From: Truepera sp.
Lineage (GTDB): Bacteria > Deinococcota > Deinococci > Deinococcales > Trueperaceae
DNA: 64,000 nt
NCBI GenBank assembly: GCA_965218435.1
Contig: CBDCKW010000009.1
Span: 1,056,001 to 1,120,000 of the forward strand
Direction of reading: 5' to 3'
Part shown: in pieces, positions 28,191 to 57,702 of the stretch
Position numbering within the stretch: the stretch's first letter is position 1
How the letters are laid out: every line of letters starts with the position of its first letter
Program-made: the position numbers and the translations under genes
Notes under the pieces: generated by a model
Seen by the model: only the letters and a program-made list of their open reading frames with translations
The model's database searches: none
What the model was told of the DNA's origin: nothing

Positions 28191-29681
28191 GTGAAGAAGA
28201 AAATTATCATTATCGGTAGCGGCTTCGGCGCACTCGGGGCCGCCGCCCGTCTCCTTGCCGCCGGACACGACGTCACGGTCTTTGAAAAACGAGACAAGCT
28301 CGGGGGCCGCGCCTACGTTTACGAGTTGGACGGCTTTAAGTTCGACGGCGGCCCGACGATTGTCACCGCGCCGTTTATGTTTGACGACATCTTCGAGGCG
28401 GCGGGAAAACGCCGCGAAGACTATTTCGAGCTGGTCAAGTGCGACCCGTTTTACCGGATTTTTGACGCGGATGGGCGGCCCTTCGACTACAACGACGACG
28501 AGATGTTTACCTTAAGCGAGATTCAGCAGCGCAACCCGAAAGATAAAGAAGGGTATCTGCGTTTTATCCGCTCGACCAAGGCGATCTTTCAAAAAGGCTT
28601 TGTCGAACTTGCCGATAAGCCTTTTCTGAGCGTCTGGGATATGCTCAAGGTTGCGCCTGATTTGGTTCGCTTGCAGTCGTATAAGAGCGTGTACAAGTAC
28701 GCGTCAGGCTTTGTTGAAGACGAATTTTTACGTAAAGTGTTTTCGTTTCACCCGCTGCTCGTCGGCGGCAACCCGTTCGATACGACCTCGATCTACGCGA
28801 TGATTCACTACCTCGAGCGCGAGTGGGGCGTGTGGTACGCGATGGGCGGTACCGGCGCAATCGTCAAGGGCTTGGGGCGGCTCATCACCGAACTCGGCGG
28901 CGAAATCTACTTAAACGCTGAAGTAGACGAGATTGTCGTAGACAAAGGTGAGGGCGAACGGCGCGTCAAAGGCGTGCGGATGCAAGACGGGAGTGTGCGC
29001 ACCGCCGACGCCGTAGTTTCCAACGCGGACGTGGCCTACACCTACCGCAGCATGATCGCGCCCGAGCACCGCCGCAAATACACCGACAAAAAAATCGAAT
29101 CCATGAAATACGCGATGTCGCTATTCGTCATCTATTTCGGGACGAAAAAGCGTTATCTGGACACCAAACTCAAACACCACAACATCATCTTGGGTGAGCG
29201 GTATGAAGAGCTGCTCCAGGACATCTTTAACAAGCATCACGTCGCTGACGACTTTTCATTGTATCTGCACATGCCGACCTATACCGACCCGAGCATGGCC
29301 CCGGAAGGGTGCGAGTCGTTTTACGTGCTTTCGCCGGTACCACATCTGGGTTCGGGGACGGACTGGAAGGCCGCTGCAAAACCCTACCGCGACCTCATCA
29401 TGCAGTTTTTAGAAGATAACTACCTGCCCGATCTGCAAGAGAACATCGTCGTCGAGCACATGATTGACCCGCTGCATTTTCAAGATACGCTCAACTCGTA
29501 TCAAGGGTCGGCATTTAGCGTGCAGCCGCTTCTTACGCAGTCGGCGTGGTTTCGGCCGCACAACCGCAGTGAGGAGTTTGGCAACCTCTACTTTGTGGGT
29601 GCGGGGACGCATCCGGGAGCGGGGTTGCCGGGGGTATTGTCGAGTTCAAAAATTGTTGAGAACTTGATTGGGGCGGCTTAA
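28191..29681 (+). CDS. crtI: Phytoene desaturase
   Basis: [48 protein letters not shown]. Confidence 0.95.
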
Positions 29682-51156: not shown

Positions 51157-51811
51157 CCTCCCTTAATGGTCATTCTAAACCCAGCGTAGAACGAGCGGTG
51201 TTTTGAAAAGGTGACTTAACCCGCTTCCAGGTAAAATCAGTTGGTTCGGTACACTTATGAGTATGAAGCTGACGCACGCGCCGCCGGGTTACCGAAGTCC
51301 CTTTTTAGATGTCGTGGAAGGACTCGAGCCTCCCACGATATTAGACTTGTTCCCGAATAGACATCAAGTGAGCCAGAGGTTCCATAAACCTGCTGAGACG
51401 ACGAGCACATCGTCTTCAAAGTTGTCTCTATGGTTGCGGTAAGGAGTCGTAAGAATACGAAACCGTTTCATTCCGCCGATAGCGTGCTCGATAAAAACTC
51501 TCAACTTGGCTAAGGCACGGTTGTCTTGCTTCTGTTCGGGGCTAAGGTGCGGGTCAGGCTTCTTTTTGCTTTTGCGCGGTTTCTTGTGGGGAATGCGAAT
51601 ACTGAGACCTTGATAGTCTGTCTGTATCCCTTGATAGCCCAAGTCGAGTAGTACTTCAGTGTCTGCAAACCAAGCCTTTTCCGAAGGAAACTCTGTTTTA
51701 AGCATGGTGTAGTCATGCGTTTTACCCGGGAAAGTCTGACCCAAGAACAAAATGACCTTGTTCGCTGAGGAGAAAACGGTGTTCTTCAAGGTATGGCGCT
51801 TTTTTTACCAC

Positions 51812-51847
51812 GTCTTGGACAAAACGGCACCTCCCGGGCCTGTCCGC
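51812..51847 (+). repeat. 36-bp hairpin micro-insertion A
   Basis: GTCTTGGACAAAACGGCACCTCCCGGGCCTGTCCGC; its removal restores HYSGKK of the transposase. Confidence 0.85.
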
Positions 51848-52031
51848 TATAGTGTTCACGTTGTTTTTCGTCATCACTTGGACGTTGATAGAGACGCTCA
51901 GTTACATCAACTAGCAGATGCTCTAGGTCTACGTTTGCCAGGGTGATTTTAAGTGCTTCGGCATTAGCAAACGTGCGTTCAGGCAAAACTCCCAAGCTTG
52001 CCAAAGTCTTAGACATGATAGGGGTCAGTCT

Positions 52032-52069
52032 GCGGACAGGCCCCTTTCGGGTGCCGTTTTGTCCAAGAC
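52032..52069 (-). repeat. 38-bp hairpin micro-insertion B
   Basis: Minus strand GTCTTGGACAAAACGGCACCCGAAAGGGGCCTGTCCGC; its removal restores the frame ENVH-RLTPIMSK. Confidence 0.85.
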
Positions 52070-52819
52070 ATGGACGTTTTCACAAGCTTTTGAACGCGCC
52101 ATATCAAAGTGGGTTCCCAGCACATCAAACGTCGGATAATTCTTGAAGTAGTAAAGCATGAACAACAGCTTTGCCTCGGCACTGGCTAACTTGCCTTTTT
52201 GCCCTCCACCCGACCTACGCTGTTTTAGCCCTTGTACATACGCTTGCTCCTGCTCAGCCTGGTGGATTTTCGCAAACACTTTCGCCAGAACCTTGAACTT
52301 CTCGCTTGATAGACCTGTCAGTGCTTTTAATTGTCGCTCGTCTCGTATCTTCGCTAGCATTTCGCTACTTTAGCAGCTTCTCCTCACTATTAGGGAACTA
52401 CTCTATTGACCCAACAGAGTGACGTTTTTTACCGGGACGCACAGCTGACAGCGTTTATCTCTGCGGCGCGGTGCCAAGCTGTTGGCGGCAACGCGCTCAT
52501 CGTTCCCAATATCCCTTACGAAAATTTCTACGCCATGCCCGACACTCTGCTCGGCACACTACACGCGTTCTCTAAACGCCTCGCGCTGGCGTTTAAGACG
52601 GTCTACGGTTGTGACGGCGTACTTTTACGGCAGCACAACGAACCGGCGGGCAGTCAAGATGTGTGGCACTATCATCTGCACGTCATTCCGCGCTTTACGG
52701 ATGACGAGTTTTACGCTACAAAGCCGCAAAAAGTCTGGACGACCCCGGAAGAGAGAGCTCCTTACGCTCGAGCCCTAAAAAATTACTTTGCCGAGAGCAT
52801 TTAAGCCGTCTAAGTCTTA

Positions 52820-55537: not shown

Positions 55538-57702
55538 CTAGTATCTGATAAACATATCTACACTACCGCTATCGCTACGGTCTGCGACATGGACGTACCA
55601 CTGATAGCTACCCGGTGCTAGATTGCCTGAAGCGAGCTGATAGTACCCGTCCTTCGGAATAATCTTGTATTGAAGATTTTGATACGTGCCGTCAGCTTTT
55701 CGCTTGTTCAAGCCTGCTGCGATAGGCACCTGATTTCCTTGAACAGCCATAAACCTTTGACCTGACGAGCTCAAAGTAAACTCGTAACTTCCCCCCTTGG
55801 TGGGTGTGAGGTTGAATCCACGCCATGTGCAGTTCGGTAATCCGACGCTATTTACACAAGGCGACTGATCACGGTAATAACCGAAAATGCTTGAGGCGTC
55901 TCTACTAGTAAGTCTTTCGCTTTCCCCCATACGGTTTTTGTCAATACCGGAACCCGCTCTAGGTAAAATCGTACATGCTGAGTCAATATTGTTGAATAGG
56001 CAGTCACGTTGGGCCTGTTCGGTCTTACCAAGTGCCCATTTTGGATAGTAGACCTCCGGCGAAAGTCACACAATGGCTTGTAGATCATGGTTGTAGAGAG
56101 CAGCAATGAGATTAAGCCGAAGTCCAAAGCGCCTGCGCCGATGACGATAGGTTTCTTTGAGGATACGCCAGACCTTAAGCTTACGAATGACGTGTTCAGC
56201 GAGGATGCGTTCTTTAGCTAGGATGCGGTTATGTAGCTGTTGCTCTGGGGTAAGTACGTTACCCTTCCAACGTTTATGCGGGGTACGGCTTTTGGGATGA
56301 AGCTTAGCCACGCCCTGAAAGCCGCTATCAGAAAGAAGTTCGGTGTTTGGCGCGAGCACCGTAGCGCAGCGGCTTTGTGTCAATAACTTGAAGTCGTGTG
56401 CTCGGCCTTTGCCATAAGCCGTACATAGGATGCGCTGACTGTTTTGTGCAACAAATACTTGGCTCTTTTGCGTGTGTCGTTTCTTCTTACCCGAGTAGTA
56501 ACGCCGCTACCCTGCCGCTGCGCTTGGGGCACTTTGTTTTTTTGGGACGTTCAACCGGCGACTCGGCAATATCCACTACCACAACTTCTAGCGTCTGGTC
56601 GTCACGCAACGCTTTGCGTCCCGGCAGTGTGAACTTACCCGAGCTGATGAGGGCGTCTTCGACGCGTTCTATGGTGCGCCGCACGGTGCTCTCGTCTACG
56701 CCCCAATCTTCTGACAAGTGAAAGTGGGTTCGGTATTCTCGTAAAAACGATAGGGTCAGTACAAGTTGGTCTTCAAGACACAGCGCGGGAGTTCGTCCGC
56801 GTTTCTTCTTCCGCCCCTCTCTCGCTTTAAGTAACTCCAGCATCGTTCTGAAAGTGGTGGGCTTGACCCCAAGTTTGCGTTTGAACTTCTCAGGTGACAA
56901 CTTTAGACTCCGTGCTGTTTGTTCGCGCATCTTTACATGTTGTCATCTTCGAGCTACTTTCGCCGGAGGTCTAGTGCATAATGGAGTAAGGATCATAAGT
57001 TGAAAGTTGTGCGCCGGTAGAGCAATTCTTGTTTAATTGACCTTTTGGGTCATATGCACGCCCGCCATAGACATTTATGAAGTTGTCCCGGTCGCACCGA
57101 GAGTGTTCGTGATTCAAAGCAACCGCGTGTCCGATCTCGTGGATCGTATTTGCTAAGTCACATCTTGTACCGAGATAGGTATTAACAGTTCCTCCAGAGT
57201 ACCCTACATAAGATGAGCAGTCGGTCTCTTCTGCAGCTCTCTGGAAGACAATACGTGCCCCACAACTGCGCGGATAGAAGCGTAGCATCGTTGCATCTTG
57301 CCAATGCTCAATAGCTGTATTGAGGTTTGCACGCTGTGAAACAGTCAAATTAGTTTCATACGCGTAATAAACTTGACCATGAGGCCAAAACTTATAGTTA
57401 CCTAAAATATCGGTAGCTCCAAACGCTTGGGATGAGAGCGAGCCGTCATTGGCCTTTTCAATTTTAGCTTCTACCTCTTCAACTGGTCCGAGAATCATAT
57501 CACCGCCGATAACTGCTAAACCGTCCACAACTCGGTAAGTGAACGTTTCACCATCTATCTCAGCTGACCTAATCTCCCCTGGTTTGTTGGGAGCATATTC
57601 GCCAATGAATGGTTCTGGGTTTTCGATACTGTTGATTACTAGAGGTGCGTCTGCAGTCTTGCTACAGGCAACTAACGTTAGTATAAACGCGAGACATAAC
57701 AA
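55538..57702 (-). pseudogene. Astacin (M12A) metalloprotease lipoprotein interrupted by an IS
   Basis: LVAC lipobox, GDMILG, CSSYVG, HEIGHAVALNHEHSRCDRD, YDPYSIMH|Y; rejoins in frame to the 55538..55930 ORF after IS removal. Confidence 0.88.
56051..56971 (-). mobile_element. IS5-family (ISL2-like) element with a split transposase
   Basis: Perfect 16-bp TIRs GACCTCCGGCGAAAGT, TA duplication; REYRT.FHL, ERPKK, YYSGKKKRHT, HDF, DSGFQG, EHVIRKLK.WRIL. Confidence 0.92.

Follow-up and report, generated by a model that had tools for sequence, protein, structure and literature searches.

A 35–39-nt mobile hairpin family of Deinococcota with two copies in an IS5-type transposase gene of Truepera sp.

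Described small elements and the Deinococcota hairpin

Mobile units shorter than 40 nt are known from cyanobacteria. Elhai et al. reportedly described in 2008 the small dispersed repeats SDR1-8 of Nostoc and its relatives. These elements are 21–27 nt long, have a covarying structure, nest in themselves, and insert into short tandem repeats and mini-transposons, and we know of no enzyme that moves them. They are the closest known kind to a family of Deinococcota, two copies of which (A and B) lie in a transposase gene in the window, the stretch of 64,000 nucleotides from a Truepera sp. contig that we analysed. Like SDR elements, the Deinococcota units are non-coding, shorter than 100 nt and dispersed as sharp-ended copies that inserted precisely without duplication; they also show compensatory stem changes and nest both in themselves and in other repeats. 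They differ in their size (35–39 nt versus 21–27 nt) and phylum, in their fixed GTCTTG and CGC ends, in an optional extra base at one junction, and in the recurrent filling of transposase codons. PMC4390886 gives a precise insertion of SDR5 into HIP1, and SDR elements are also cited in PMC2884548. We found no description of the Deinococcota family in the open-access literature.

As the systems are defined, the family belongs neither to the IS200/IS605 derivatives nor to REP/RAYT or CGTC/NTS-Ssn. IS200/IS605 derivatives likewise leave no duplication, carry a hairpin with an extrahelical base, and have an end that resembles the target. However, the Deinococcota unit is one hairpin rather than two ends and has no fixed target of 4–5 nt; no cognate TnpA was found for it, and the end hairpins of 19 resident Y1 loci are not shared with the unit. 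Integron attC sites resemble it in their folded single strand, stem, asymmetric bulge, extrahelical base, variable tip and head-to-tail arrays, whereas the unit has no GTT/AAC core pair at its foot, carries no gene, and was seen in no integron context.

According to PMC3116915, PMC6006769 and PMC3733652, REP and REPIN sequences with their RAYT share with our units a short bulged hairpin, an unpaired tag at one end, tandems, and a presumed handling as a single strand. The Deinococcota tag is GTCTT, not GTAG (GT[AG]G); single units are gained one at a time rather than as doublets, and they lie inside transposase genes and other repeats, whereas the REP doublet is mainly extragenic. The RAYT motif is Y-x-x-x-NP (PMC6006769), and no class 2 Y1 gene with this motif was found flanked by the unit in the genomes searched, which are incomplete. 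CGTC REP and NTS-SRM sequences with Ssn are similar in having Y-GTC at the tagged end (CGTC or TGTC like) and a hairpin with a short tail, and PMC3733652 and PMC11893778 present CGTC-tagged repeats as likewise having no dedicated transposase. In the Deinococcota units, by contrast, the pyrimidine belongs to the target (empty sites keep it), the stems are bulged and of 5+3+2 bp rather than 8–9 bp, and no single-domain GIY-YIG gene was found flanked by the unit, one small gene having been read in context. The name Deinococcus has 0 occurrences in the accessible text of PMC3733652 and PMC11893778.

Two inserts in an IS5-type insertion sequence

The host insertion sequence (IS) of A and B, whose features are listed in Table 1, is of the IS5 type and presumably ISL2-like. 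An earlier note on this DNA had described the two inserts, and their sequences, coordinates, opposite orientation and 184-bp spacing are all as it gave them. A and B have 18 left bases and 10 right bases in common. The left-end 14-mer of the inserts has exactly two exact occurrences in the window and three matches at up to two mismatches, against 0.42 expected. A scores 61.4 bits against R1, a model made from members of the family. Individually, the two inserts fold weakly (DNA z of −1.35 and −2.16); both nevertheless form the bulged hairpin that had been drawn for them, and we accept this structure because of the covariation found across the family.

Table 1. Features of the host insertion sequence and its inserts (window positions)
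Feature	Position	Strand	Remarks
Host insertion sequence, IS5-type	51342..52405	-	HTH_Tnp_4 and DDE_Tnp_4
Terminal inverted repeat of host IS	51342..51360	+	19 bp, 15/19 matching other end
Terminal inverted repeat of host IS	52387..52405	-	
Transposase, N-terminal part before B	52070..52360	-	HTH_Tnp_4
Transposase, part between B and A	51848..52031	-	184 bp
Transposase, C-terminal catalytic part	51364..51789	-	DDE_Tnp_4
A7 run, -1 frame change of emptied gene	51800..51806	-	Next to site A
Micro-element A	51812..51847	+	36 nt, simple unit; antisense to transposase, in frame with it
Micro-element B	52032..52069	-	38 nt, simple unit; sense to transposase, shifts frame
Four bases preceding A	51808..51811	+	C at -4, C at -1; CCA not conserved in family
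Four bases preceding B, on B's strand	52070..52073	-	C at -4, T at -1

The window IS was compared with contigs from four public metagenome runs (X1, X3, X5 and X6). Near-identical IS copies in contigs of X5 and X6 omit exactly 52032–52069, which is B, and retain A. In contigs of X3, X5 and X6, position 51811 is joined to 52070 with 184 letters between, and both inserts are absent. The empty sites that had been sought in other IS copies are therefore found, lacking either B only or both inserts, and their exact junctions bear out insertion without target duplication. Since some IS copies have A and lack B, A was inserted first. In contigs of X1, both inserts are present and show 0 differences; as X1 could itself be the source sample, this match argues against an assembly slip and nothing more. 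A second copy of the window IS is located between other flanks in the same genome (G000:C9:1477898-1478964) with both inserts present, and no empty copy was found in this genome. Both copies are filled and their flanks differ; therefore, the IS moved after it had been hit. One X1 contig joins across the entire IS (window 51339–52405), so the IS insertion is missing in part of the X1 sample or in a close strain.

The claim that clean removal of A and B restores the transposase holds for the frame across both junctions (ENVH|RLTP and HY|SGKK, where homologues read ENVHKLTP and REHYSGKK), but even without the inserts the gene occupies two frames. Many of 112 homologues stop at 172–178 aa, at the position of the A7 run; for this reason, the break at A7 is a trait of the transposase family rather than damage by the inserts, and the run is likely a natural frameshift site. 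Inserts can indeed break IS genes, as B does by shifting the frame. Inactivation of the IS, as had been suggested, is a possible outcome, but many inserts are in frame and sit on IS copies that continued to move. A second IS5-like transposase in the window (56066–56930, minus strand) is in two frames as well, with the change near an ERPKK motif, and contains no micro-element.

Family, fold and target of the hairpin

A and B are copies of a non-coding family of mobile hairpins of 35–39 nt in Deinococcota, built as GTCTTG, stem, bulge, stem, variable tip, stem and CGC. Further copies, which the earlier note had proposed to look for, were found both in the window's genome and in relatives. The genome holds 14 loci at 10 independent sites, which range from 25 to 75 nt and all start with GTCTT and end with CGC; the longer forms have extra tip sequence. 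The tip grows by nested insertion (51-, 54-, 60- and 75-nt forms); in the 75-nt form, the loop of a 36-nt unit has taken up a 38-nt relative and one T. A 75-nt unit that is atypical in its left part is located at G000:C9:2724520-2724594, in an unassigned host sequence. An IS630 gene contains a unit shortened to 25 nt by an internal deletion (G000:C9:216876-216900, minus strand), with the loss apparently between TGTTCG and TGTCCG.

A pattern blind to pairing matched 62 of the 364 genomes of the phylum, with up to 169 copies per genome and near-zero matches of the reversed-pattern controls. By taxonomic family, the positives were 52/125 in one family, 4/127 in that of the window, and 3/19, 0/23 and 2/68 in others; three of the five genomes of the window's genus were positive. 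When each species was represented by one genome, 62 loci were obtained, of which 60 are in Deinococcota records. The other two are on 2-kb contigs (L058 and L091) filed under Coleofasciculus; they resemble the IS of the window's genome and are probably contamination. At least 132 loci were obtained from a metagenome scan (33 passed the pairing filter among the matches listed) and at least 120 from a viral scan, in which the three that passed among the matches listed are chance-like. According to the record names, the family is also present on plasmids of cultured Deinococcus grandis, D. psychrotolerans, D. wulumuqiensis and D. taeanensis.

Units are arranged in head-to-tail tandems, with the joint CGC-G-TCTTG in 47 of 58 cases, and in nests several deep. 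The genome G165, read nearly whole, contains 112 units in 71 arrays, which are decayed and include chimeric units and recombined arrays; one IS630 site in it holds 0, 1 or 2 units among 21 copies of the flank. Cousin units of 40 to 76 nt keep the foot (G/T-TCTTG, lower stem, bulge and CGC) and have a changed upper part. Cousins of 40, 45 and 76 nt with different upper stems were read at L335:1772 (minus strand), L625:13199-13347 and 28620-29481, and L623:269-308. Some cousins start with TTCTTG; their five initial bases are then identical to the target, which gives the appearance of a 5-bp duplication.

The earlier note had left a choice between a very small non-autonomous mobile hairpin and the scar of a larger element. 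The former describes the family well: it has empty and filled sites, no duplication, and a location in dispensable DNA. The latter is not supported, with no left end lacking a nearby right end, save the one internally deleted copy, and no gene shared beside the units. Of 165 candidate frames, 137, among them three of the window, were compared with Pfam and gave no shared neighbour gene, and only IS3 proteins recurred as neighbours when 20 Deinococcaceae loci were compared all against all. No autonomous long version was found in the window's genome, and inverted pairs of units 1–2 kb apart had pieces of IS or ordinary genes between them.

The units form stems of 5+3+2 bp with bulges. Among 53 aligned units, 96.0% of 530 cells are paired, and in 40 cells both partners differ; none of 500 shuffles and none of the slid controls reached this level. 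Because this set was partly chosen by pairing, the count was repeated on 157 distinct units from the pairing-blind pattern, in which 836 of 942 stem positions are Watson-Crick. The unpaired GTCTT (53/53 aligned units), the last C of the bulge and a bulged A are invariant. On the complementary strand, 56 of 60 four-base loops are GNNA, 19 of them with a pyrimidine at the third position, whereas the longer tips (97/157 units) are not GNNA. GNNA loops form mini-hairpins in DNA, and the corresponding loops in RNA are GNRA; the tips with a third pyrimidine thus fit DNA mini-hairpins better. Together with the bulged T, the GNNA tips suggest that the strand complementary to the one read here folds, as DNA. 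Neither wobble pairs (32 G.T and 31 A.C) nor DNA folding energies, which are equal for the two strands, gave a signal for the choice of strand.

Nine of the 10 sites in the window's genome are within transposase frames, although a rough count puts repeated DNA at about 8% and non-coding unique DNA at about 14% of it. Pfam confirms IS630, IS3, IS1 and the window IS as hosts; the other host IS labels in this genome are presumptive and based on motifs. Across the genus, Pfam matches a transposase at the site in 14 of 29 loci; transposase motifs were recognized by eye in several others, and at least three are outside IS. In element-rich genomes, many units instead occupy intergenic or short tandem repeats. 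Where elements are few, as in the window's genome, copies would survive and travel mainly inside IS genes. An IS element that we take to be ISAs1-like (G000:C9:933086-934345 and 1482843-1484102) is present twice, with a 51-nt unit that keeps the frame and introduces no stop; the genome has no copy of it with the site empty.

The same codons recur as sites: Y-x-P-x-x^N and SWLN^MAEIE in IS630, TLRQ^RL in IS1, and HSDQ^G, EAKR^L and KKAxA^FF in IS3. At KKAxA^FF, the IS flanks are 62–94% identical and the units 84–100%. A tree of 24 IS rows has 10 filled rows and 14 without a canonical unit; the filled rows are not a clade (p-AU 3.8e-10), and at least four changes are forced, with one filled row being very long-branched and one "empty" row holding a 45-nt cousin at the same spot. 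One ancient insertion followed by loss is rejected under the tree model, and filling of this IS3 codon was repeated in separate IS lineages. The insertion adds 38+1 bases and OrfA stays open; therefore, filled IS copies remain able to move and to take the unit with them. Of 10 matches on the Deinococcus grandis plasmid, the two that were read are each within a gene annotated as IS3 orfA. At the IS3 site in L333, L318 and L626, the hairpin lies 8–9 nt after the A6G run of orfA, the place expected for a stem that stimulates frameshifting, and it might influence OrfAB synthesis. The hot spots may result from targeting, selection, or transfer between related IS copies. The family forms a layer of parasites on IS; its members can either break the transposase or travel with it, and they confuse the annotation of IS.

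Target preferences were counted on 98 of 193 sites after homologous sites had been collapsed and the decayed arrays of G165 excluded; some 10 of these 98 derive from loose matches to metagenome or viral sequences and could have arisen by chance. A pyrimidine is present at −1 in 92 and at +1 in 78 of them, and C is present at −4 in 54 (55%, against a background of 28%). CCAC and CCAT do precede A and B, as had been reported, but a fixed CCAY target does not extend to the family: CCA stands ahead of the last base in 3 of the 98 independent sites, and in 3 of 123 in a looser set. Given a pyrimidine at −1, the flanks match CCG (−4 to −2) at 1.15 positions versus 0.82 and TCTT (+2 to +5) at 1.40 versus 0.96, with 0 of 2000 resamples as high in either case. 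The flanks therefore resemble the unit's own joined ends, CCGC^GTCTT, loosely; the likeness is weak (about 1.15–1.4 of 3 and 1.4 of 4 matches), and hot spots such as IS630 Y-x-P-x-x^N have a right side unlike TCTT. No preference for hairpin tips was detected among 123 sites with G165 excluded (35% versus 28% on one strand, p 0.19; 28% versus 24% on the other).

The two junctions are not equivalent. The CGC junction is exact, and the GTCTT junction often gains one T; in the insertion products, the bases of the target are unaltered as far as the junction. Among 29 nested insertions into the tip of another unit, of which two rows are one event, 15 were exact, 10 had an extra T, two had an extra C and two were unresolved. 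Six of the extra-T cases are at C^C sites, so the T is an added base, and a one-base T duplication as the rule was rejected. Of 21 T|T junctions for which an empty site could be aligned, 15 gained one base; several of the alignments were poor. The commonest self-nesting site is GGCAC^C.

Candidate mechanisms and enzymes

A covarying alignment across the phylum, a target rule that can be measured, junctions of marked polarity, an ordered pair of insertions and hosts in culture make the mechanism of this family testable. Mobility, fixed ends, the fold, a bias in the target and the polarity of the junctions are observed; on this basis we tentatively favour, with somewhat less than even confidence, a model in which the unit moves as a folded single DNA strand that is cut and joined in trans by a predicted phosphotyrosine-type single-strand transferase; the strand, the circle and the enzyme class are predictions of this model. 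The complement of the strand read here would fold, and the unit would be released as a closed dumbbell with the junction CCGC^GTCTT. This junction would be reopened and joined to a look-alike target, after a pyrimidine and without duplication, and the optional extra base would be either a flanking base carried along or an untemplated base. Empty sites, covariation, GNNA tips, target likeness, junction polarity, tandem joints and the scarcity of reverse transcriptases (RTs) count for the model. Against it stand the failure to find an enzyme, the longer tips that are not GNNA, the missing strand signal in wobble pairs and folding energies, and the weak likeness of the targets. Moreover, no circle or excised form was observed, and we know of no precedent among IS200/IS605 for one hairpin that serves both ends. 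A wider reading, which we regard as doubtful, takes the whole mobile element to be a 36-base, gene-free single-stranded DNA dumbbell that has no dedicated transposase, is moved by a host or unnamed phosphotyrosine enzyme into sites mimicking its junction, and as a parasite of IS hits conserved codons, killing IS or riding them between Deinococcus species. If this were true, cultured and transformable hosts would open the question of what moves units of SDR size to direct test.

No mover enzyme was found among the classes searched. The unit might instead be moved in a side reaction of a housekeeping enzyme that acts on single strands, with a type IA topoisomerase the most plausible candidate. 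It would cut by the hairpin, close the unit and rejoin it to a different single-stranded site with no dedicated gene, which would account for the lack of a linked gene in every element-rich genome. Bacterial topoisomerase I favours C four bases upstream of the cut, according to PMC3467081, and both the C at −4 of the targets and the right end of the unit (CCGC) are in keeping with this. We nevertheless consider this explanation unlikely. C at −4 is present in only 55% of the sites, and the commonest self-nesting site has G there. Moreover, the pyrimidine at −1 and the invariant unpaired bases suggest specific recognition, and a universal enzyme leaves the patchy spread (52/125, 4/127 and 2/68) unexplained.

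Mobilization in trans by a known IS200/IS605 TnpA or a RAYT, as the earlier note had proposed, now seems quite unlikely. The peel-and-paste pattern of IS200/IS605 (no duplication, a hairpin, and an end resembling the target) is matched by the bulged unit, whose complementary strand has AAGAC against AAGAA, and the window's genome has 22 Y1 matches. However, the 15 that were translated are IS200-type and none has the RAYT motif, and the end hairpins of 19 Y1 loci of this genome and three from relatives are simple and unrelated to the unit. There is no fixed tetranucleotide target, and none of the 137 scanned frames is a Y1 gene beside a unit. Four of 10 element-rich genomes, G041/G165 (95% complete), G042, G147 (97%) and G069 (99%), have no Y1 match; they may have lost the gene or be incomplete. 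A motif screen of 2365 frames of G165 gave no HUH candidate, and this genome has no match to Y1, IS110, RT or small GIY-YIG; as its arrays are decayed, the mover gene may have been lost. A known HUH enzyme is thus not the evident mover. IS91-type Y2 transposases were matched in 0 of 15 genomes, in a search whose control matched nowhere. GIY-YIG matches in eight element-rich genomes were only of UvrC length, and a small GIY-YIG gene read in the window's genome has no unit beside it.

A decidedly unlikely alternative, in our judgement, dispenses with a unit-specific enzyme: single-stranded fragments from tandems or filled IS would anneal by short homology, with the hairpin looped out, and be fixed in repair or replication, which would also spread filled alleles. 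The resemblance of targets to the tandem junction on both sides, the recurrence of the same IS codons, and the chimeric units and recombined arrays of G165 are in its favour. The homology amounts to a few bases, however, and the target's own bases are kept up to the junction; different unit types, including the 45-nt cousin, occupy the same IS3 codon, and invariant unpaired bases are not expected from such a process.

An IS110/IS1111-type or tyrosine recombinase that uses the joined ends (short inverted repeats with a 7-nt spacer) as a donor site would fit the absence of duplication, the subterminal inverted repeats, the likeness of donor junction and target, and the presence of IS110 in several element-bearing genomes, but is very unlikely, because IS110 is patchy and unlinked to the unit, has no match in G165, G121, G069, G127 and G119, and would face targets too varied for one guide, and because DNA stiffness forbids the closing of a 36-bp double-stranded circle. 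The earlier note's suggestion of Y1 or IS110 genes flanked by the hairpin thus led to none linked to the unit; the one unit near an IS110, in G005, sits inside the neighbouring IS630 gene and not at the IS110 end, and this adjacency is coincidental.

It is highly improbable that the unit is a tiny retro-element whose transcript is copied by an RT at a nick, with an untemplated base left at one junction and the other exact. The asymmetry of the junctions suits this idea, 10 of the 29 nested insertions having an extra T that would be an A on the strand copied, as do seven RT matches in the window's genome. However, these RTs are in ordinary group II introns without sequence link to the unit, RT matches are present in two and absent in 11 of 13 other element-bearing genomes searched, the loops are GNNA rather than GNRA, and both orientations occur in one gene. 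There is also no Rfam match over window 51300–52500, which counts against both a retro-element and a group II intron remnant; the latter was rejected, the resident introns being unrelated. These group II introns are near-identical and have intact RT frames (G000:C9:775347-777782, with copies on C4 and C5), and the copy on C9 is located inside an integrase-like gene, beside a tRNA-like end.
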